Notes: a model not told the origin generated them from the sequence alone. A stretch of DNA of 64,000 bases from Candidatus Altiarchaeota archaeon (GCA_038891095.1 JAWAEV010000001.1:196468-260467); one strand, 5' to 3'; shown: positions 6,053-18,560, counted from the stretch's first letter. Made by a program: numbers and translations.

Positions 6053-8066
6053 TTTTCCACACTACTTAGTACTTCTCAAACACCTAAAAATATGCAAGTA
6101 TCAACATTATGGTATACCATGTTTCCACACTACTTAGTACTTCTCAAACCAACAGTATCGGCATGGGTGATAGACGAAAGTGTATTTAAGTTTCCACACT
6201 ACTTAGTACTTCTCAAACATGCACCATAAAATTTTACACCCAAGGGCCCATCTTTTGAGTTTCCACACTACTTAGTACTTCTCAAACAGGAGAATAGACA
6301 ATATAGAGGAAGGATTGGAAATAGTAAGTTTCCACACTACTTAGTACTTCTCAAACTCAGAGAAAAATTAAAATCAGTTAAAGGGAAAGAAGAGGGTTTC
6401 CACACTACTTAGTACTTCTCAAACATATGAATTAATAAGTATGACCTGGTGGAATATGATTTCTGTTTCCACACTACTTAGTACTTCTCAAACAGAGAAG
6501 AAGTTTAAAGACATAAAGATAAAGAAATTAAGAGTTTCCACACTACTTAGTACTTCTCAAACACAAATAACGAGAAGGTTAAAGCAAAATGGTTGGTATG
6601 GTTTCCACACTACTTAGTACTTCTCAAACTTCGAGAGAACGGGGATTATAATGCAGTGATAGAAGCGTGTTTCCACACTACTTAGTACTTCTCAAACTGG
6701 AGAGATGGATAAATGAAAAGTTAGAAGAGTGCAGAAGGTTTCCACACTACTTAGTACTTCTCAAACTGGAAAACCATCAGAGAGCTAAAAGATAAGTTAA
6801 GGGAGTTTCCACACTACTTAGTACTTCTCAAACTATGAAATATCAGATTTTAAAGAGACTGATGATGCGCTTCCAGTTTCCACACTACTTAGTACTTCTC
6901 AAACATGAATAAAGAATTTGGTAAGATTTATAATCTGACTGAAAAAGCGTTTCCACACTACTTAGTACTTCTCAAACTCTCCCCCATCGACGGTTTCTTT
7001 TCATTTTCTTCTTTATGTTTCCACACTACTTAGTACTTCTCAAACCTGCGTTGGCAATATGGAAAGCAGATCCAAGAAATTCAAGTTTCCACACTACTTA
7101 GTACTTCTCAAACTCTAAATGTGAGGTGAAATAAAATGGAATTTATATTATTAGTTTCCACACTACTTAGTACTTCTCAAACTAATAAAATAACAGACAC
7201 TGGAAGTTATCGCATTGGTATAGTTTCCACACTACTTAGTACTTCTCAAACCTATAGCGCAACGATCGAAGCCTACCGAAAGGTAGGCGGTTTCCACACT
7301 ACTTAGTACTTCTCAAACAACAATCTCTGGAGTTTTAAATAGGTCGGGTATCCCTGCGTTTCCACACTACTTAGTACTTCTCAAACTGGAAACGTGGATC
7401 AATAAAACGATAGAAAGAGCAAGAGTTTCCACACTACTTAGTACTTCTCAAACTCTCTTCCTCAGGAATTGCTAAACTCCAGAGCAATCTCTGGTTTCCA
7501 CACTACTTAGTACTTCTCAAACGAAATTAATTGAAAGTAAAAAGGAGGAGGTTATATTGATGTTTCCACACTACTTAGTACTTCTCAAACTAAAAGAGGC
7601 ACTGGATAAGAGAGCACGAGTGTTTCTGCTCGTTTCCACACTACTTAGTACTTCTCAAACGCAAGTAAGAGAACAAACGACATTCAAGAGTTAGAAAAAG
7701 TTTCCACACTACTTAGTACTTCTCAAACGAGAAGAGAGAAGCATTGAACACGAACGACGTGTTCAAGTTTCCACACTACTTAGTACTTCTCAAACGAGCA
7801 AGAAGCAATAAATACTGCTGACATTTATAATGGAGTTTCCACACTACTTAGTACTTCTCAAACACAAGGAACCCGAAAGTTTCTTGCAAGACGCTTTAAA
7901 AGCGTTTCCACACTACTTAGTACTTCTCAAACAAAAATGAAAAAAATGAAAGTATTGACTCTATTGTCGAGTTTCCACACTACTTAGTACTTCTCAAACA
8001 ATTTAAATAACATTAACAAATTTAGAAGTATAATTGAGTTTCCACACTACTTAGTACTTCTCAAAC
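6053..8066 (-). CRISPR. CRISPR array, 30 repeats of 29 bp (GTTTGAGAAGTACTAAGTAGTGTGGAAAC on the minus strand), 29 spacers of 38-44 bp
   Basis: Counted exact repeats GTTTCCACACTACTTAGTACTTCTCAAAC on +; the leftmost copy (6053) is degenerate (TTTTCC) and marks the trailer; AT-rich leader on the cas2 side; the minus-strand repeat ends in GAAAC. Confidence 0.99.
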
Positions 8067-8190
8067 CAAGAGGGATAATACTTTATATATACTTATTTTT
8101 TTGTTTTTAAAAGGATAAAACTCAGTCGATCTAAAAATTAAGCTTTATTTAAAAAGGTCGACAAGATAGTCTCGCTGTCTTACGGGTTTA
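8067..8190 (-). promoter_or_regulatory. CRISPR leader with TATA-like box and GTCGAYCT inverted repeat
   Basis: Minus-strand TATATAAAG close to the first repeat; GTCGATCT (8125-8132) and AGGTCGAC (8155-8162) form an inverted pair. Confidence 0.75.
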
Positions 8191-8193
8191 ATT

Positions 8194-8451
8194 TCACAGT
8201 ATTCTACTCATCTGCTTTGATACACCAATTTCTGTCCTTCTCAAGAATTTATCACTCTTTAGTGTATAGATTATGACTCTATCTTCTTCAGCCAGATTTT
8301 CTTCAAACCATTCAACTATTTCTTTAAATTGAAGTTTTGTTAATTTTCCTTCAAAGACAGAATTTTGTCTCCAATAGAGATATTGGTAAAGAAATTTATT
8401 TACTTTCACAACCCTTTCAACAGAAATGTCATAAACAATTATTGCGTACAT
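8194..8451 (-). CDS. cas2: CRISPR-associated Cas2
   Basis: IIVYDIS, QNSVFEG motifs; adjacent to array. Confidence 0.96.
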   Translation of the reverse strand: MYAIIVYDISVERVVKVNKFLYQYLYWRQNSVFEGKLTKLQFKEIVEWFEENLAEEDRVIIYTLKSDKFLRRTEIGVSKQMSRIL

Positions 8452-8457
8452 TTATTA

Positions 8458-9432
8458 TTACCACCACATCTTAAAACTTTTGTATTCCTTATTCCCAAGA
8501 ATATGATCAATCAACTTTTGACATTCTATCCTTATGATCTCAGTATAATTAACTTTCCTTCCAAGTCCTGGGTAGAAAATTGTTGTAGATAATTTTTTAT
8601 CAAAAGCTTCAATGAATATCTTTTTTCCTTTATTGTTGAGAAGGACTCCGCCTTCAACTTTTTCAAAGCAATCTTTATCAATTTCTTTTTTATTCACCAA
8701 AGAGAATATTGTTCTAGAAACAAACAATGGTTTAAAAATTTCTGCTATATCCAAAGCCAAAGAAAATCTTCTCTCTGAAGGCTCATGCAGAAAAGAAATC
8801 GCAGGATTTAAGTATGTACGATAAATTTCACCTAAACATTTTGTATAAAGTAAGGCATTCCCAAAGCTTATTAATGAATTGACTTCGTTGCTTGGCGGCC
8901 TTTTTTCTCGTTTTATAAGTTTAAATCCTCTCAGAATTTTGTCAAATGAGTTATAGTAGTTACTCCAAATTCTACCCTCTATTGACATCAGTTCAGGAAT
9001 GTTAGAGCATTTCTCTATATCTAAAGCTTCTATAACTTCAGTGTTTATATCTCTTCCTCTGTTTTTATAATACTCTAAATTTTTCAGGATATTATGTTTT
9101 ATTCCTCTCACTATTTCCTTCGCTATTTTTATTCTCTTTTCATTGTCAAGGTAATGTTCTGCTTGCTTTACAATAACATTCCCAGATATTAAAAATTCTC
9201 TTGGATATAAAGTTCCTTGATACCAGCCATACATGCTATAGAAATGTATGGGTATTTGTTTTTTCATTAAGTAACTTAAGCAGCCACTTTTTATTGTAAC
9301 TCTTGTGCAACATATTACTTCTGAAATGGAATTTATTGGCACTGCTTTTTTTCCTTCAAAATTTTGGAAGAATAAAGTACTTTTATTTCTGTATAAAATA
9401 CCTTCATTTAGCAAATATACTGTTTCTTTCAT
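8458..9432 (-). CDS. cas1: CRISPR-associated Cas1 (I-B-like, no RT or Cas4 fusion)
   Basis: IEGR, N-x-LISFGN, SFLHEP, LDIAEIFKP; ATG at 9432. Confidence 0.96.
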   Translation of the reverse strand: MKETVYLLNEGILYRNKSTLFFQNFEGKKAVPINSISEVICCTRVTIKSGCLSYLMKKQIPIHFYSMYGWYQGTLYPREFLISGNVIVKQAEHYLDNEKRIKIAKEIVRGIKHNILKNLEYYKNRGRDINTEVIEALDIEKCSNIPELMSIEGRIWSNYYNSFDKILRGFKLIKREKRPPSNEVNSLISFGNALLYTKCLGEIYRTYLNPAISFLHEPSERRFSLALDIAEIFKPLFVSRTIFSLVNKKEIDKDCFEKVEGGVLLNNKGKKIFIEAFDKKLSTTIFYPGLGRKVNYTEIIRIECQKLIDHILGNKEYKSFKMWW

Positions 9433-9537
9433 TGCTAACAATTATAAAAATTTCAAATATTTATATAATTGCCATAACTGTTAGCCTATATGACTAATAT
9501 TTAAAGGGTCTCTTTTTAAGCACTCATAAGTAATAAT

Positions 9538-9557
9538 TACCATAAATATTTTTGGTA
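9538..9557. promoter_or_regulatory. 20-bp near-perfect palindrome, candidate operator
   Basis: TACCATAAAT/ATTTTTGGTA (9 of 10 pairs), 3 bp before the ATG of the CARF-wHTH gene in the divergent cas1/csm promoter region. Confidence 0.5.
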
Positions 9558-9560
9558 GAT

Positions 9561-10199
9561 ATGACAATAATGTTCGTTCCTGTTGGCGAACAAATAAAAC
9601 CAATATACGAAGGCTTCAAATATGTTAAGAATGTTGACAAAGTTTATTTATTAGCTTCTAAAAAAACCATAGGATATGCCAGTGAAGTGAGCGAAAAGAT
9701 AGGTGAGATTTACAACACAGAAATTCTTGATGTTACTCCAGAAGAACTTGACAATGTTATCTGCAAACTAATAGAAGTTGCAGAAAAACATAAAAAAGAT
9801 AAAGTGGTTTCTAATGTAACAGGAGGGACAAAAATAATGTCTCTCTCATGTTATATTTTATGCTCATATCTTGGCGGTGATGCATTTTATATCTTCAAGA
9901 CTGATGAGGGTAAAATGAGATACATAGAAATGCCTGTTCTAAAGATAAAATTAAATTCAATTATAGAGGAAAAATCAACTCGAAGTAGAATATTGGAAAA
10001 GCTAATGGAGAGAGAGTATAGCTCTTTAACTTCATTAGCAAAAGAATTAAGAATAAAAAATTCGACTTTAAGTGCTTTGCTTGATGATCTAAGTGAGCAA
10101 GGTCTCATAAAACTAAAAAGAGAAGGGAGGAAATTAAAAATTGAAATTTCAAAAACAGGAAAGATAATTTACAAAATCAGAAAGTTCAAAAATGAATGA
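9561..10199 (+). CDS. csa3: CARF + winged-helix transcriptional regulator (Csa3-like)
   Basis: CARF motif NVTGGTKIM; C-terminal wHTH SLTSLAKEL..STLS..L..L.EQGLI; overlaps the cas10 start. Confidence 0.82.
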   Translation: MTIMFVPVGEQIKPIYEGFKYVKNVDKVYLLASKKTIGYASEVSEKIGEIYNTEILDVTPEELDNVICKLIEVAEKHKKDKVVSNVTGGTKIMSLSCYILCSYLGGDAFYIFKTDEGKMRYIEMPVLKIKLNSIIEEKSTRSRILEKLMEREYSSLTSLAKELRIKNSTLSALLDDLSEQGLIKLKREGRKLKIEISKTGKIIYKIRKFKNE

Positions 10200-12597
10200 T
10201 GAAGAGAGAATTTTAATTTTAGGAGCATTGTTGCATGATATCGGGAAATTTCTCGAAAGAGCAGGATTTACAGAAAAAATAGAGGACAATAATGTTAGTT
10301 ATAAGCATCCAATGATTGGAGCATATTTTCTAGATTATCTAAACTTAGGTGAAGATATTGTCAATTTAGTTCTATTCCATCATAACCCAGAGCATGCCCC
10401 AAAGAATATAAAAAATTTGAGTTATATCCTTCAATTATCTGATTGGTTAAGTAGTGGTGAGAGAAAAAAATCTGAGGAGGAGATAGATGAAGGTAGGAGA
10501 TTTCAATGTATGATTTCTGTATTTAATAGAGTAAAAATAGAAAAAAATAACTCTGATCTAAGATATGAGGAGTGCCATAAGTATAATACAGTACCATTAA
10601 AGTTTAATAATTTAATATTCCCAAAAAAAGAACCAGACATCATAGATTATAAATATCTTTTTGAAGGAATTAAAAACAAGAACAATCAGAATTATAAATT
10701 ATTTTTATCAAATTTCAGAAAGGACATAACAGAAAAAAATATAGAAGACCCTGTAGTCCTTTTATCGTTATTACAAAAATATTGGTGGTGTGTGCCAGCA
10801 CAGACATATTCAAAAGAGCTTGAAGGGGGTAAATATCTCCCAGATATCTCTCTATTTGATCATTCTAAAACAACGTGCTCAATTGCGTTATGTTTATATA
10901 AGCTAAATAAAACAGGGGTCATAAATGGGGATATATTAAAGGAATTACTGGAAAATCCTCCATGGAAAGAGAATAGAAATCCAGAAGTATGGGAGAGGAA
11001 ACTATTTAAGTTGATTTATGGGGATATATCTGGCATTCAGGATTTTATTTATACTATAAGAACATCTGGGGCCGCTAAATCACTTAAAGGTAGATCATTA
11101 GCATTGGTTCTATTACAAAGATTTATAGCTGAGCATATTTTGATGAAGCTTAATCTACAGCTAACAAATCTTATCTTCTCTGGTGGAGGACATTTCTATA
11201 TACTTGCACCACTTGACCTCTGCGGAGAGAATATAGAAGATATAAAAAGAGAGATTAATAAAAAATTGTTTGAAAAATTTGGGACAAAGTTATATCTAAC
11301 GCTTGGTTATGTCGAGTTATGCCCAGAGGATTTTATAGGCAAGAATTTTTCTAATAAATGGAAAGAGGTTGCGGAGGAGAATAATAAACAGAAAATAAGG
11401 AAATATAAAGAACTAGGTTATGAGGAGATATTCAAAGAATTTGATATCGGCGGAAAAAGCAAAATTTGTGGTATCTGCGGCAGTAATAGAGAGGTGAATT
11501 ATAAGGATGATGAGATAGACGTATGTTCAAATTGTCATTCATTTAGAAATGTTGTCAGCTATCTAAAAGAGGTTCAAAATGAAGGAAGATTCAATATTTC
11601 AAAGATAAAAAAGGAGTTACCTATAATTTCAGATTTTGATATACTTCTAAATGATAATGTTTATTTAACACCGGATAATTTACCTTTTTTTTCTATTCCT
11701 ATTGGAATTCCTCATGGGAGAGATGGTAAAATAAAAGAATTTAACGAACTTGCAGAAGATGCAGAGAATGACACTGGAACAAGAAAGATAGCGATACTTA
11801 AGATGGACGTCGATAATCTTGGAAAAATTTTTACTCAAGGATTAGGTGAGGATGCTACTATTTCAAGGATGAGCACTCTTAGTAACATGTTATCCTTATT
11901 CTTTGAGGGTTATCTTAACGAATTTATAAGAAGTAGATATTCTGACGATGTCTATCTTATATATTCAGGAGGTGATGATACTCTAATTGTTTGTAGATGG
12001 GACAAGATGATTTATCTTGCATATGATATATACAAGGAGTTTAGAGCGTATACATGCAATAATCCAGATATAACTATCAGTGCAGGAATTGTGATTGTTG
12101 ATCCTAAATACCCACTAAGAAAATCAGTTGATGTGGCCCATCATCTTTTAGATGAAATTGCTAAAGAAGGTGATAAAAATGCTGTTGGTATCTTTGGGCA
12201 TAGAGTAAAATGGCGTATAGAAAATGATGGGGGTTCTAATGAGTTTGAGAAAGTTATAGAAATTGAAAGAATCCTTGTTAAATCAATTAAATCTTCCGCA
12301 TCAAAGCAATTGATCCAAAGAGTTAAGTCCTCTATAATTGATCTTGAAAAAGGACTGAATGGTATGGAAGTAGATTTGAAATATTATTGGAGGTTGAAGT
12401 ACTATCTTCATAGGAATTATTATAACGAGAAAGAAAATTGTTGGAAAATCAAAGAGATTGAGGATTTAAAGAAAAAAATATACAATGATATTCTCGACAG
12501 AAATGTATTCAATAAAGATGTTGAGTGTAATCCTTGGTTAATACCAATTGCAGCAAGGATTGCTGAATTAAAAACAAGAAAGGAGGTGAGAAAATGA
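10192..12597 (+). CDS. cas10: Type III-A Cas10/Csm1 with HD nuclease and cyclase palm
   Basis: LLHDIGK HD motif, GDISGIQDFIY, Zn CGIC..CSNC, MDVDNLG, YSGGDD. Confidence 0.97.
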   Translation: MNDEERILILGALLHDIGKFLERAGFTEKIEDNNVSYKHPMIGAYFLDYLNLGEDIVNLVLFHHNPEHAPKNIKNLSYILQLSDWLSSGERKKSEEEIDEGRRFQCMISVFNRVKIEKNNSDLRYEECHKYNTVPLKFNNLIFPKKEPDIIDYKYLFEGIKNKNNQNYKLFLSNFRKDITEKNIEDPVVLLSLLQKYWWCVPAQTYSKELEGGKYLPDISLFDHSKTTCSIALCLYKLNKTGVINGDILKELLENPPWKENRNPEVWERKLFKLIYGDISGIQDFIYTIRTSGAAKSLKGRSLALVLLQRFIAEHILMKLNLQLTNLIFSGGGHFYILAPLDLCGENIEDIKREINKKLFEKFGTKLYLTLGYVELCPEDFIGKNFSNKWKEVAEENNKQKIRKYKELGYEEIFKEFDIGGKSKICGICGSNREVNYKDDEIDVCSNCHSFRNVVSYLKEVQNEGRFNISKIKKELPIISDFDILLNDNVYLTPDNLPFFSIPIGIPHGRDGKIKEFNELAEDAENDTGTRKIAILKMDVDNLGKIFTQGLGEDATISRMSTLSNMLSLFFEGYLNEFIRSRYSDDVYLIYSGGDDTLIVCRWDKMIYLAYDIYKEFRAYTCNNPDITISAGIVIVDPKYPLRKSVDVAHHLLDEIAKEGDKNAVGIFGHRVKWRIENDGGSNEFEKVIEIERILVKSIKSSASKQLIQRVKSSIIDLEKGLNGMEVDLKYYWRLKYYLHRNYYNEKENCWKIKEIEDLKKKIYNDILDRNVFNKDVECNPWLIPIAARIAELKTRKEVRK

Positions 12598-13010
12598 ATG
12601 GAGGAAAGTATGAGAAAAAGGATTTTAATGAAGAAGTACGTTCTTTACTTAATGATGAAGAGATAGATAAAATTTTAAACTTAAAAGACGAAAATGTCGA
12701 ATTGTTTGTAAAAAAGGCAGAAGAATGTGCAAAAGAATTTAAGTTCTCTGCATCTAAACTAAGAAGTTTCTATGATCCTATAAAAGGAATGAAAGAATAC
12801 CAGAAAATAAAACTTTATTTATTGAAACCAAAGATTGCTTATGCTGTTGGAAAAGAAGAGAGGGAGAAGAGATTAGAATTAAAAAAATTCCAAAAAACAA
12901 TGGAAAAACTAATCGAAAAGACTAATGAAAATAATTTCGAGAACTTTAAAAGTTTCTTTGAGGCAATTGTTGCTTATCATAAAATATATGGAGGTAAAAA
13001 ATGGAACTAA
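12594..13010 (+). CDS. csm2: Type III-A small subunit Csm2
   Basis: LRSFY, LKPKIAYAVG, FFEAIVAYHK. Confidence 0.95.
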   Translation: MNGGKYEKKDFNEEVRSLLNDEEIDKILNLKDENVELFVKKAEECAKEFKFSASKLRSFYDPIKGMKEYQKIKLYLLKPKIAYAVGKEEREKRLELKKFQKTMEKLIEKTNENNFENFKSFFEAIVAYHKIYGGKKWN

Positions 13011-13699
13011 TGGGAAAATTTTTCATACATGGGGATATCAAAACAATTACTGGATTACATATCGGTGGACAAAAAGAAACATTGGATATCGGAGGGGTAG
13101 ATAATCCAATAATTAGAGATGGAAAAGGTAGAATCTATATTCCTGGGAGTTCCCTAAAGGGAAAAATAAGATGCTTATTGGAGAGAAAATATAGTACAAA
13201 AAAAACAAAAAAAGAAGGTGATCCATGTGGATGTGGAGAATGCCCGATATGTAAAATATTTGGTCCGCACTCAGATGATGTCAAAGAGCCGTCAAGAATA
13301 ATTATTAGAGATAGCTATTTGCTAGATGATGCAAAAACAACAGAAATAAAGTCTGAAAATATTATAGATAGAATCTCAGGTAAGGCACTACATCCAAGAG
13401 ATACTGAGAGAGTTCCAACTGATTCTAGGTTCAAGTTTGAGGTCATATTTAATATCTATGATGAAAATGCAGATATAGAGTTGATAAAGAAGTTCATTGA
13501 AGGGATGGAATTACTTGAGGATGATTATCTTGGCGGTTCTGGTTCAAGAGGATATGGAAAAATTAAATTCGAGGACATATCACTATCTTACAAAAAAAAG
13601 GAGTACTACGAAGGAGATGAAACTAAAAAAATGAATATTCCAGATATAAAAGGAATAAAAGAACTTAGAGAGAAATTAAATGAACTTAAATTCTCTTGA
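13001..13699 (+). CDS. csm3: Type III-A backbone RNase Csm3
   Basis: TGLHIGG, catalytic GGVDNP, IPGSSLKGK, YLGGSGSRGYG. Confidence 0.96.
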   Translation: MELMGKFFIHGDIKTITGLHIGGQKETLDIGGVDNPIIRDGKGRIYIPGSSLKGKIRCLLERKYSTKKTKKEGDPCGCGECPICKIFGPHSDDVKEPSRIIIRDSYLLDDAKTTEIKSENIIDRISGKALHPRDTERVPTDSRFKFEVIFNIYDENADIELIKKFIEGMELLEDDYLGGSGSRGYGKIKFEDISLSYKKKEYYEGDETKKMNIPDIKGIKELREKLNELKFS

Positions 13700-13701
13700 A
13701 A

Positions 13702-14685
13702 ATGAAGATAGTAAAATTATTCCCTGCAGAAGATGGTAAATATCATTTTGGAGACCATATGTTAGAATCTACGTCACTAATATTCCACTCAGACTCTCTA
13801 TTTAGTGCAATTATAAATAACTACAGAAAATTATACCCCATTAATGTAAAAGAGGACGTAGAACATCTAAAGAACATAAAGATATCCTCGGTATTCCCAG
13901 CATATGATGATGTGTTATTTATTCCAAGACCGATAACAAAATTAAATTTTGGTAAAAAGATGGAAAACTATATTGAAAAGAAATCTAAAGATATTAAAAA
14001 TATAGAGTTTATATCTCTAAAAGCACTTAGAGACCATAATAATGGAACTTTGGATTTTAATATTGAAACTGTAATTGATAAAAAATTTCTTATTTCAAAA
14101 GATGAAGATAAAAGGGAGAATATTTTTTTTGAGATAACTGAAGAAAAGGTAGGAATAAATCGTACAAATAATAAAGCATCTGAAGGAAATTTATTTGTTA
14201 TTTCGTATGTAAAACCACAGGATAATACTTACTTCTATTTTTTCTTAGATGAAAAAGTAGAAAATGACATTAAAAAGAAACTTTATGCTTCAATTCGATT
14301 AATTGCTGACGAGGGACTTGGTGGTGAGAGAACTAGTGGTGCCGGTTTATTTGACGAAATTAAAATTGAGGATTATAATGGATTTGAAAATTATTATATT
14401 GATTCTAATTATAATATGTCACTTTCGCTAGTGTTTCCAAAAGATAAAACAGAATTTGAATGTGCTGAGACATATCAATTAGTTGAGAGGAAAGGATTTA
14501 TTTATTTTGCAAAAGGAAGTGGCTCAAGAAAAAAAGGTATATTAATGATTAAGGAAGGTAGCATCTTTAAAGAAAATATTGAAGGTAAGGTTATAGATGT
14601 GTCCCCAAATGATGAATGTACTATTTGTAAATTTGGTCGATTTTTTGGTATACCGATAAAATATATTGAAAATGATCCAAAATAG
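13702..14685 (+). CDS. csm4: Type III-A Csm4
   Basis: HFG, HSDSLFSA, ISSVFP, GLGGERTSGAG. Confidence 0.93.
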   Translation: MKIVKLFPAEDGKYHFGDHMLESTSLIFHSDSLFSAIINNYRKLYPINVKEDVEHLKNIKISSVFPAYDDVLFIPRPITKLNFGKKMENYIEKKSKDIKNIEFISLKALRDHNNGTLDFNIETVIDKKFLISKDEDKRENIFFEITEEKVGINRTNNKASEGNLFVISYVKPQDNTYFYFFLDEKVENDIKKKLYASIRLIADEGLGGERTSGAGLFDEIKIEDYNGFENYYIDSNYNMSLSLVFPKDKTEFECAETYQLVERKGFIYFAKGSGSRKKGILMIKEGSIFKENIEGKVIDVSPNDECTICKFGRFFGIPIKYIENDPK

Positions 14686-15721
14686 TTTGGAATTAATATG
14701 TGAAACTCCGGTACACATTGGGAATGGTAAAAAATATACATTTTTAGACTACTTCTTGGATGGTGGATTTATACATATAATTGACACTGAGAAGATATTT
14801 GATGACATAAATAAAATTGAAGTTATAGATGGGTTATGTAGAGATATAGAAAATAAAATCATAAATGGTCAAGCACAAATAGACATCAGAGAGTTCTTTG
14901 GCCAATATGGAATAGATCCATGGAGATACGTAATCAAAAAGATAAGAACAAATGTGAAACCATCAAGAAGAGTTCAGATATCTCAATTTATAAATCAGAA
15001 TGGAAATTGTTATATCCCTGGAAGTTCTATTAAAGGTGCAATAAGAACCGCATATCTATTCGATTACTATGACAAAGACATTGATAAATTAGTCAAAATT
15101 TTAGAGGATCAAAGAATACGAAATAAATACAAAAAACTTAATGAAGAAGCAATAGGTGGTATAGAGGAGGATATTTTTAGACATATCCAAGTAACGGACT
15201 CTAGTTATATTAATAAAAATAATTTTATCGTTATAGAAGCAAAAAGGTATAATAACATAAAGAAGCAATGGGGAAATCCTGTATATTTAGAAGTAATAGA
15301 CAAAGAAACACGTATTGAATTCAATGTAAAGATCGATGAAAGGTTTAAGAAATCAATTAATGATATTATGTCTTGGTGTAATAATTTATCTAAAATTATT
15401 GCGGAATACGAGATGAATAATAGATATAATAGCAATGACTTGAAAAAATATTATAAGTCTTTATATGATAACATTAAAGAAGACGGTGAGCATTTCTACT
15501 TGAATCTCGGATTTGGCGGTGGGCATATAACAAAAACAGTATATCTTCTATTATGGAAATACAAGAAAGATTTGAAATTAATAAGAGGTTTACTTAAAAT
15601 TGAAAAACTAATAAAGAAAAGTATGAGGGTAAACAATTTCTATGAATTTCCAAGAACGAGAGTTATCTTCAATAATCTCCCAATAGGTTGGGTAAAAATA
15701 AGTAAATTAAAGAATGTTTGA
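14672..15721 (+). CDS. csm5: Type III-A Csm5
   Basis: TPVHIGNG, YIPGSSIKGAIRTA, LGFGGG, PRTR...GWV. Confidence 0.93.
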   Translation: MIQNSLELICETPVHIGNGKKYTFLDYFLDGGFIHIIDTEKIFDDINKIEVIDGLCRDIENKIINGQAQIDIREFFGQYGIDPWRYVIKKIRTNVKPSRRVQISQFINQNGNCYIPGSSIKGAIRTAYLFDYYDKDIDKLVKILEDQRIRNKYKKLNEEAIGGIEEDIFRHIQVTDSSYINKNNFIVIEAKRYNNIKKQWGNPVYLEVIDKETRIEFNVKIDERFKKSINDIMSWCNNLSKIIAEYEMNNRYNSNDLKKYYKSLYDNIKEDGEHFYLNLGFGGGHITKTVYLLLWKYKKDLKLIRGLLKIEKLIKKSMRVNNFYEFPRTRVIFNNLPIGWVKISKLKNV

Positions 15722-15786
15722 AGAGAACACTAAATCAATAGAATTTACTCAGCAGGGAGAACCATTGGGCTGGATGAAATTTGAGA

Positions 15787-16089
15787 ATGAATAAAATAAA
15801 TGCAGTAGTTGAGAAACTTAAGGAATATGGAGCGGAGAAGATAATCCTGTTTGGATCAGCTGCAAAGAGAGAGATAGATGAATATAGCGACCTAGATTTT
15901 TTAATGATCAAAAAAACAAGGCTGAGATTTTTGAGAAGATTGATAGAAGTTGGAAAAATTTTGAGAGAATTCGGTAAGGTAGATGTATTTATATATACCC
16001 CTAAAGAATTTGAAAAGATGAAAGAAATGAGAAATCCCTTTATTGAGAGAGCTTTAAAGGAGGGGAAGGTTGTATATGAAAAGAAATAA
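15787..16089 (+). CDS. Minimal nucleotidyltransferase (MNT)
   Basis: ILFGS-x10-DLD motif; paired with the downstream HEPN gene. Confidence 0.9.
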   Translation: MNKINAVVEKLKEYGAEKIILFGSAAKREIDEYSDLDFLMIKKTRLRFLRRLIEVGKILREFGKVDVFIYTPKEFEKMKEMRNPFIERALKEGKVVYEKK

Positions 16090-16480
16090 AGAAGATGCTT
16101 TAAGATGGTTTGAGCAAGCGAAACATGATTTTAGAGTAGCTGAAAATAATCTTAAATCTGGATTTTATGCAGATGCCTGTTTCATGTGCGAACAAGCTGC
16201 TCAGAAGGCATTGAAGGCATATCTTATCTACAATGGGAGGAGGTATATATGGGAGCATTCAATTCAAGAGTTAGCTAGGTTATCTATGGAACATGAAAAG
16301 AAATTTAGAAAGGTTATAGATGCTGGAATAATCCTTGATAGATTTTATATCCCTACGAGATATCCGGATGCATTAGCTCCACCAGCTATACCTTATAAGT
16401 CATATAGAAAAGAGGATGCATTGGAAGCAATAAAGCTAACTGAAGAAATAATTAGACTGGTGGGTGAAAAACTAAAGTAA
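16076..16480 (+). CDS. HEPN domain protein (MNT-HEPN pair)
   Basis: W...A..D...A, CF.CEQAAQKALKA, HS, YIPTRYPD pattern of archaeal HEPN. Confidence 0.9.
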   Translation: MKRNKEDALRWFEQAKHDFRVAENNLKSGFYADACFMCEQAAQKALKAYLIYNGRRYIWEHSIQELARLSMEHEKKFRKVIDAGIILDRFYIPTRYPDALAPPAIPYKSYRKEDALEAIKLTEEIIRLVGEKLK

Positions 16481-16519: not shown

Positions 16520-17827
16520 ATGAAAAAAGTTGCATTATTAATGACTGTTGGAACAGGAATTAAAGGTAGGGAAGAGGAGAGCAGAGATAGTCAAGGGCAC
16601 GGTATCGCTTTTGCTATAGAAAGATCAAATCCAGAAAAGATAGTTTTCTTTTGCACTAAGGAAAGTGAGAAAACTTTAGAGTATGTGTTAAGATATCTTA
16701 AAGATAATAAATTAAAGAAAATTTTTAATAGTTCAGAAAGAATTATGCTTAGAAGCTATTCTGATCCTATTCTTATAATAAGAGATATTAAACCAAAGTT
16801 TGAAGAGGCAAAAAGTAATAATGATAAAATAATTGTAGTTCCTACTTTTGGAACAAAAGCAATGACCTCAGTCATTTTCAACCTTGGAGTTTTATATAAG
16901 TCGGAGCTTTACTCTGTTGAAGGTGATCGCGGAGAGAATGGAATTGTCAAAAAAGGTACTGAAACTTGGCAAGAACAGAACGTATATCTGATTTTTGATA
17001 TGTTTTACTTTGATAAAGTAAAGGATTTTTTTAATAGAAATAACTTTGACGCATCATCTGAATATCTAAACAACATAATTTCAGATAAAATTGAGGAACT
17101 CAAAAAGAGCGAATTAAGAACTTTGATAGAAGGTTTTAGTTCTTGGGATAAATTTGATCATAAAAACGCATATATCAAATTGAAAGAATTAGAGAATGAA
17201 CTCAGGAAAAAGTTTGAGAGTAATATAGAATTTATTAAAGGGATATGTTCACTTGAGCATGAAATAAAAAATTTAGAGAAAAAAGGGAATAAAGATGAGA
17301 ATGTGAAACAAAAAAAGTGCAAATTAATTCAACTTTTGATGATAGATTTACTTGCTAATGCATCTCGCAGAATTTCTGAAGGAAGATATGATGATGCTGT
17401 TGCAAGACTCTACAGGTTGGTAGAGCTAATAGCTCAGTATAGGTTATATTCAAACTATAATCTCTCCACAAATGAATTTTTTGATGAGGTCTCAACATTG
17501 ATGGATCTATATAGGTATAGAGATAAATTTAATAATGAAGGTGAAATGGAAGAATATGTAGATAAGGAAGGCAAGTTAAAGATAGGACTAAAGAAATCTT
17601 ATTCTTTACTTGAAAAACTTGACGATGATATAGGTAAAAAATTTGTAGGAGACGAAGATATGAAAAAATTGTTGGGTATCAGAAATAACTCTATTTTAGC
17701 CCACGGTATAAACCCTGTGGACAAAAAAACTGCTGAAAATTTGTTATCTAAGGTAGAAAATATGATAAAAGGTATAATAGAAAACTACGAAAAATTGATA
17801 GAAGGAGCGAGATTTTCAAAACTTTAA
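16520..17827 (+). CDS. CARF-HEPN ancillary ribonuclease (TIGR02710/Csm6-like)
   Basis: MTVGT and TFGTKAM CARF motifs; YDDAVARLYRLVE; RNNSILAHG HEPN R-x-H motif. Confidence 0.88.
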   Translation: MKKVALLMTVGTGIKGREEESRDSQGHGIAFAIERSNPEKIVFFCTKESEKTLEYVLRYLKDNKLKKIFNSSERIMLRSYSDPILIIRDIKPKFEEAKSNNDKIIVVPTFGTKAMTSVIFNLGVLYKSELYSVEGDRGENGIVKKGTETWQEQNVYLIFDMFYFDKVKDFFNRNNFDASSEYLNNIISDKIEELKKSELRTLIEGFSSWDKFDHKNAYIKLKELENELRKKFESNIEFIKGICSLEHEIKNLEKKGNKDENVKQKKCKLIQLLMIDLLANASRRISEGRYDDAVARLYRLVELIAQYRLYSNYNLSTNEFFDEVSTLMDLYRYRDKFNNEGEMEEYVDKEGKLKIGLKKSYSLLEKLDDDIGKKFVGDEDMKKLLGIRNNSILAHGINPVDKKTAENLLSKVENMIKGIIENYEKLIEGARFSKL

Positions 17828-17846
17828 AATTTATCCATATTTAATT

Positions 17847-18560
17847 TTATCGTATCGGATTTATAAATCCGAAACCAAAAGAATTTTTCTCACCTAAACC
17901 ACAATCCATTATGAATTCGTAAAATTTTCTGTCTTCTCTTTTTATGTGAAACTTTTCTAAAAGAGACCAAACACTTCCTATAATTATAAACTTTCTATTA
18001 TTTTTTACATTTTCAATAGAAACTTCTTTTTTGAATTTTAATTTATCGAATATTCTCTCCTCAAGGGAATAATTGTCAGAATAAAATGCATTAAATTTTT
18101 TGACAGCGTTTTCCTCTAGTCTTTTAATAAAAAACTCTACGTTTCTATCCCTCTTAAAAGAGTAATAAAGATTTTTCTTGTTATCCTTATAAAGAACTAT
18201 AGGGCTTCCAGATATAAATCTGTTTTTCAATTTTAAATTCACTTCTTTGATATCTTTCACATAAATTTCGTGTGAGCCAAGTTTTAGGACCTCAGCACAC
18301 CTTAGAGACTCAGCTAATGCTTTAATAAAATTTTTGTTCGGTGATGATACCAAAAGCATTTTCGCTTCTTCGTTTTTAAAATCACTCACAGGGAAGATAT
18401 CAGAAAAGCAGAAGAATTTGAATTTTTTTGAGTCGTGAATTTTTGAGAAGTCGTTATCTTTTGTTTTTAGTAGAGAGTATATAAAGCCCTGAACCATGTG
18501 TTTGCTAATCTCCTCATAAGAAAAATCTTCAAGAGGTTCAAAGGTTATGATCAGTCTCAT
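17847..18560 (-). CDS. cas6: crRNA-processing endoribonuclease Cas6
   Basis: KFFCFS, C-terminal G-loop [11 protein letters not shown]. Confidence 0.94.

Follow-up and report, generated by a model that had tools for sequence, protein, structure and literature searches.

The type I-C CRISPR array of Legionella pneumophila contains two pairs of spacers that are directed against overlapping regions of LME-1 (Rao et al. 2016, PMC5071653). That report reads identical or overlapping spacers within one array as the trace of repeated invasion by related elements. In the pairs it describes, the older members are imperfect and the newer ones perfect.

For type III systems, the spacers of Thermus thermophilus are described as strongly biased towards strands complementary to transcripts, and as able to cluster in a narrow, early region of the phage, and both are put down to selection (Artamonova et al. 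2020, PMC7515739). In Candidatus Altiarchaeum, type III systems that include Csm have been reported, with direct repeats that are conserved across sites (Rahlff et al. 2021, PMC8324899).

The locus described here belongs to a Candidatus Altiarchaeota archaeon (GCA_038891095.1). The window, by which we mean the whole stretch of DNA that was analysed, is 64,000 nucleotides long (JAWAEV010000001.1:196468-260467), and positions are counted from its first letter. An earlier note had proposed that three pairs of spacers in one array are homologous, and that they record divergent variants of the same target. For two of these pairs, the joint resemblance at the peptide level exceeds what is expected by chance; for the third it does not. 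Whether the two pairs indeed stem from diverged relatives of one mobile element is weighed below, and we give that reading about an even chance.

The array and its repeats

The array runs from 6053 to 8066, and the part that the earlier note singled out (6630-7834) is its middle. Parsing it into repeats and spacers yields 30 copies of a 29-nt direct repeat, with 29 unique spacers of 38-44 nt in between. Short identical direct repeats at regular spacing, separated by different sequences of similar length, are what defines a CRISPR array, and this is what is found. The repeat copies are identical in 29 of the 30 cases, and the one mismatch is in the copy at 6053. Rfam CRISPR-DR models match the array below threshold only (24.2 bits, with a gathering score of 35), and for that reason the match was left out of the argument on orientation. 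The numbering S9-S26 used in the earlier note is the numbering that follows from the 29-nt parse, so it is retained.

The genome consists of 958,546 bases in 15 contigs, at 31% G+C, and this is the sole array with the 29-nt repeat in it. Among 61 genomes of the phylum, the same repeat is found with 3-6 mismatches at L005 (G001:C192), L002 (G027:C17), L003 and L004. The array in G001 has 20 copies. Since such variants extend to further genera, and to a second group at class level, the repeat family is conserved across the phylum. The flank of the G027 array has no synteny with the present locus. In the literature searched, the repeat was not found in either orientation.

The cas and csm genes

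Between the stop codon of cas2 and the first intact repeat there is an AT-rich stretch of 127 nt on the minus strand (8067-8193), which is the probable leader. Roughly 14-25 nt from the repeat, it has a TATA-like run on the minus strand, a putative promoter.

The adaptation genes cas2 (8194-8451, minus strand; PF09827, E 2.1e-16; TIGR01573, 50.7 bits) and cas1 (8458-9441, minus strand; PF01867, E 1.5e-83; TIGR03641, 443 bits, cut-off 304) adjoin the array, and both exceed curated cut-offs. The cas1 is of the type I-B kind (Cas1b), although the sole effector genes found are those of type III-A. Then follows a gene on the plus strand for a Csa3-like regulator with CARF and winged-helix parts (9552-10199). 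It has CARF and HTH matches in Pfam, and its 47.6 bits against TIGR01884 are below the cut-off of 60.2. This gene excepted, the cas and csm calls at the locus are above curated cut-offs.

The effector operon, csm1(cas10)-csm2-csm3-csm4-csm5, occupies 10192-15721 on the plus strand. Its TIGR02578 match scores 583 bits (cut-off 170), and TIGR01870, TIGR02582, TIGR01903 and TIGR01899 are all above their cut-offs too. According to Pfam, Cas10 has HD and palm (palm2) domains. Since the profiles for Csm1 through Csm5 all exceed their curated cut-offs, the effector is assigned to type III-A (Csm) on its gene content. Further along the plus strand, at 16520-17827, there is a gene for a csm6-type CARF/HEPN accessory ribonuclease (PF09670, PF22205; TIGR02710, 186.7 bits), and at 17847-18560 on the minus strand there is cas6, for the endoribonuclease that cuts repeats (PF01881; TIGR01877, 121.9 bits). 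A minimal nucleotidyltransferase/HEPN gene pair is found between csm5 and csm6 (15781-16480). The gene that adjoins cas6 is that of a replication factor C small subunit, which marks the host as an archaeon.

In primed adaptation, new spacers gather around an older protospacer that matches in part, and dedicated type I machinery (Cas3) is involved. No Cas3 core scores above the cut-off anywhere in the genome, the best match reaching 66.3 bits where 102.45 is needed; the genome is 93.65% complete, which leaves absence unproven. There are two open reading frames with a Cas4 domain, on contigs C3 and C8, both away from the cas locus.

Polarity and coding sense

The orientation of the array can be argued on several grounds. 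The repeat at 6053 is the degenerate one. The cas1 and cas2 genes are oriented, from the right, toward the 8067 end of the array, where the AT-rich, TATA-like stretch is also located. In addition, the most degenerate repeat of the related array in G027 is also found at this end. Together these support a trailer at the low coordinates (6053) and a leader at 8067-8193. The spacers S9-S11 would then be older than S18-S27, as had been proposed. Given a leader on that side, the array is probably transcribed from the minus strand. No match to the array was found in the RNA run X3, which has no bearing on its expression.

On the plus strand, 25 of the 29 spacers (6082-8037) are purine-rich (binomial p = 1e-4). 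The mean purine content of the spacers is 0.63, compared to 0.56 for the sense strands of host open reading frames, and 74% of 39-mers taken from those sense strands are purine-rich. Because the spacers share this richness with host sense 39-mers, the data fit a picture in which nearly all spacers look like coding sense on the plus strand, with crRNAs that would be antisense to mRNAs. Interference by type III systems needs crRNAs that are antisense to mRNA. The strand bias thus fits selection for guides complementary to transcripts, as would be expected of a type III system.

Two spacers, S16 (7114-7153) and S22 (7523-7561), have on the plus strand a purine run that resembles a ribosome-binding site, with a start codon after it. 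Both apparently extend across the starts of genes, which agrees with the plus strand being sense.

The spacer pairs

All spacer coordinates here are on the plus strand. S10 (6698-6737) and S20 (7387-7424) align at offset 0 and agree at 25 of 38 nt. S9 (6630-6668) and S18 (7252-7289) are identical at 16 of 23 nt, at offset 16. For S25 (7729-7766) and S26 (7796-7834) the count is 21 of 35 nt, at offset 3. The counts given in the earlier note for the first two pairs are correct, and so is its placement of S10 and S20 in the same register. It had estimated the identity between variants at about 65-70%; a range of 60-70% is right.

S10 and S20 each have one stop-free frame on the plus strand. The frame is the same in both, and it is also the frame of the alignment. 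The first 3 nt of S25 and S26 are identical, and if a one-codon indel is allowed for in the alignment, these two also start at the same codon (offset 0).

As peptides, all 406 pairs of spacers were compared with BLOSUM62, ungapped. The pair S10/S20 ranks first, with 6 of 12 residues identical and a score of 37, and S25/S26 ranks second, with 5 of 11 residues identical and a score of 34. The peptide readings given earlier for these pairs hold. S9/S18 ranks fifth, and its score of 25 is at background level, given that the mean top score of the null sets is 27.9. Among the best 12 pairs listed, there is no third spacer with the motif of either good pair.

The differences within the pairs had been described as synonymous or conservative in many cases. 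The first half of this does not stand: only 2 of the 8 differing codons are synonymous in S10/S20, and again 2 of 8 in S25/S26. Several replacements are conservative, chiefly in S25/S26, and that half can be kept. Spread over codon positions 1, 2 and 3, the differences number 4, 4 and 5 in S10/S20, and 5, 3 and 6 in S25/S26, so there is no excess at the third position.

The older member of its pair, S10, is ten spacers away from the newer one, S20. S25 and S26 are neighbours, with S26 on the leader side, and both are recent. The proposal of an older and a recent episode of acquisition therefore fits S10/S20, and does not fit S25/S26.

Because the internal repeats are 100% identical, decay within the array can be ruled out, and mutation in place would not explain 13-14 differences. 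The members of a pair would have to be separate captures from related sequences, or else their resemblance is chance.

Resemblance and chance

At the nucleotide level S10/S20 is the top pair. Of 200 shuffles, 9.5% yield a score as high as this, as do 12.5% of 400 sets built from fragments of host open reading frames. A match at offset 0 with at least 25 identities occurs in 1% of those 400 sets. S1/S28 (23/35) and S5/S22 (18/26), pairs that no one would take for homologues, have nucleotide scores above that of S9/S18, and S25/S26 comes seventh. The evidence for the pairs at this level is weak.

The peptide level is sharper. In 543 sets of host open reading frame fragments, the top score is at least 37 in 3.3%, and the second score is at least 34 in none. 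For 301 sets of host fragments matched for purine content, these figures are 5.3% and one set, and for 311 sets of codon-shuffled spacers 1.0% and none. The two pairs together are thus supported as more alike than chance gives.

Taken one at a time, the pairs fare differently. Shuffling of residues gives single-pair p values of 2.5e-4 for S10/S20, 5e-5 for S25/S26 and 6.5e-4 for S9/S18. Multiplied by the 3654 comparisons of pairs and frames, these become 0.91, 0.18 and 2.4, and none survives alone. Since the single-pair values fail full correction, the case rests on the two pairs jointly. The homology of S9 and S18 is rejected as a chance resemblance: the peptide score is below the mean top score of the null sets, and the corrected value is 2.4.

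Search for protospacers

A blastn search with the whole array against phages returned 4 weak matches only (E 0.6), to Staphylococcus and Yersinia phages, and a search against plasmids returned none. Against the 61 genomes of the phylum, the array matched the related repeats, and otherwise produced short matches at chance level only. No self-targets were found in the host genome.

Codon-aware degenerate patterns were also used. The pattern for S10 and S20 combined has 0 matches in viral contigs and 0 in metagenome contigs. In species genomes it has 2 matches, in metagenome-assembled genomes of Clostridium and Lutibacter, and these were dismissed as chance: a stop codon interrupts the frame in one of them, and the other mixes both variants with other residues. 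The pattern for S25 and S26 combined has 0 matches in viral contigs. Its 4 matches in metagenome contigs are identical to either spacer at only 19-24 of 35 positions, and were likewise discarded as chance. Merged exact patterns for S9 or S18, and for S27 or S24, have 0 matches in viral contigs, and the same goes for exact patterns of S19 and S2.

The support for the pairs mapping to homologous sites in elements is statistical in nature. Because no protospacer was recovered, orthologous variants are not distinguishable from paralogues or from repeats within one element.

Sequencing runs

The runs that match the array, X1 and X2, are labelled as hot springs metagenome. In run X1 there are contigs that match S2 and S19 to the exact edge of the spacer (6189 and 7357), and that then run on into DNA that is not repeat, with a median continuation of 255 letters. 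Neither S2 nor S19 has a match in the host genome. Since the contigs run on in this way and the host genome has no match, non-array DNA with the sequences of S2 and S19 is present in the same sample, and these are candidate protospacer contigs. The two 30-letter continuations, past S2 and S19, have one 6-nt word in common, at distances of 2 and 3 nt from the edge, perhaps by chance and perhaps as a flank motif.

S13 (6905-6948) is unusually long at 44 nt, and begins with a start codon. A contig of run X1 agrees with its first 24 nt and diverges at 6928, which may point to a variant target or to a variant array.

The summed contig depth in run X1 is 81-133 over S1-S3 (6104-6334), compared to 12-15 on the flanks of the array. 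Either spacers at the trailer end are common to more strains, or non-array DNA that matches them is abundant.

At a joint of 6736 with 7526 in run X1, there is a stretch of 35 letters between two repeats that is absent from the 29 spacers. Because of this stretch, we conclude that the sample also contains variants of the array with other spacers. Where X1 contigs join distant spacers, the joints were not taken for real rearrangements, as the word length of the assembler exceeds the 29-nt repeat. Run X2 contains the S21-S22 stretch at 100% identity.

Interpretation

The explanation that we prefer is that the two members of a pair stem from independent captures, made at one and the same site of a protein-coding gene in two diverged relatives of a mobile element. 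These relatives would share some 45-50% of residues and 60-66% of nucleotides at the captured sites. The machinery that serves the array consists of a type III-A (Csm) effector, Cas6, Csm6 and Cas1-Cas2 of the I-B type. A crRNA read from the minus strand would be antisense to the mRNA of the invader, and binding of the transcript by the Csm complex would set off the defence. Given what type III pairing needs, 13-14 mismatches would leave no cross-recognition. A guide that differs this much would fail on the other variant, so that each variant would come to have a spacer of its own. The array, the cas genes, the resemblances with their statistics and the strand skew are observed, and we infer the direction of transcription, the coding sense, the homology of the targets and the lack of cross-recognition.

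The shared register deserves separate attention. If captures fall freely over a target space of 2 kb, the probability that two pairs are both within 3 nt is 0.42. For 5 kb this is 0.11, for 10 kb 0.033, and for 20 kb 0.009. Because the agreement is improbable for a large target space, it points to a small usable one, for instance expressed genes that add up to a few kb, comparable to the narrow early region selected in Thermus (PMC7515739), or else to a site at which capture is preferred. Part of the agreement is ascertainment, as only near-full overlaps are detectable. An overlap of 20 nt, like that of S9/S18, is indistinguishable from noise.

Captures from diverged relatives are not the only way to arrive at such pairs. 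Both members could come from a single element with paralogous genes or internal repeat units, in which case no diversity of invaders is recorded. S25 and S26 are adjacent (prior for a random pair, 0.07), as would fit two captures during one infection, and a peptide identity of 45-50% with differences spread evenly over codon positions is as typical of old paralogues as it is of orthologues. However, S10 and S20 are ten spacers apart and would not have been captured together, and the best 12 pairs listed hold no further spacer with either motif. Paralogous sites would also need the same small target space, or the same site preference, to fall into one register by chance. We consider a single element unlikely on balance. 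The resemblances could also be nothing but chance among short, purine-rich, coding-like sequences whose targets are unrelated. The nucleotide shuffles and null sets, the corrected values of all three pairs, and S9/S18 in particular, which is clearly at chance level, speak for this. Against this, peptide scores of 37 and 34 were found together in just one null set over all three kinds, the offset-0 match of 25 nt is rare, and both good pairs align in open frames at nearly the same register. These make chance quite improbable as the whole story.

The register could also reflect a more active process, in which an old, mismatched crRNA (of S10 or S25) bound the diverged transcript or the gene behind it, and steered Cas1-Cas2 to the same site again. 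This would amount to priming in a type III form, or 'spacer updating'. Both pairs agree in register exactly or to within one codon, which is unlikely for free sampling of at least 10 kb, and priming by older, imperfect spacers has been proposed for the overlapping type I-C pairs (PMC5071653). But with 13-14 mismatches over 35-38 nt, hardly enough base pairing remains for any guidance, and the Thermus report, where it deals with bias in type III adaptation, ascribes it to selection and not to a targeting mechanism (PMC7515739). Furthermore, there are only two pairs, and their agreement is inflated by the ascertainment noted above. We therefore deem such steering extremely unlikely. Slightly broader is the idea that a III-A system with Cas1-Cas2 of the I-B type recaptures one exact site of diverged invader variants, be it through a signal in the sequence or at DNA ends, or through an in-register 'update' by an old mismatched guide. 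This is very doubtful as well. If it were true, site-directed or guide-directed adaptation would be a mode that is undescribed for type III systems.

Should the pairs indeed record diverged relatives, then the array amounts to a short record, ordered in time, of how an archaeon of a hot-spring community met a diverse family of invaders. Immunity would have been renewed at the same gene site, and not rescued by tolerance of mismatches. This would bear on the natural reach of type III tolerance, and on the size of the useful target space. At present the value of the pairs is mostly that of a pointer, in a sample that also has non-array DNA matching at least 2 other spacers.

Comparison with known systems

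Overlapping spacers against related invaders are already documented, and the array described here would be a further example. As in Legionella, there are two pairs of spacers in one array, of which older and newer members differ (PMC5071653). There, the targeted element is known, a few bases (mismatches in PAM or seed) set the variants apart, and the system is a DNA-targeting type I-C with priming, according to the same report. In the present array, 34-40% of positions differ between the members, and the effector is an RNA-guided type III-A.

With Thermus thermophilus the locus shares a Cas1-Cas2 without reverse transcriptase, and the clustered captures reported there make overlaps likely (PMC7515739). 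That work concerns a bacterium infected in the laboratory with phages that are known, whereas here we have an uncultured archaeon, and a strand bias that is read from purine skew. Nearer by, genomes of Altiarchaeum are reported to carry type I-B effector genes (PMC8324899); the present genome has a Cas1 of the I-B type, and no Cas3 above the cut-off. What is distinctive here is how deeply the members of a pair diverge, and that the system around them is type III-A.
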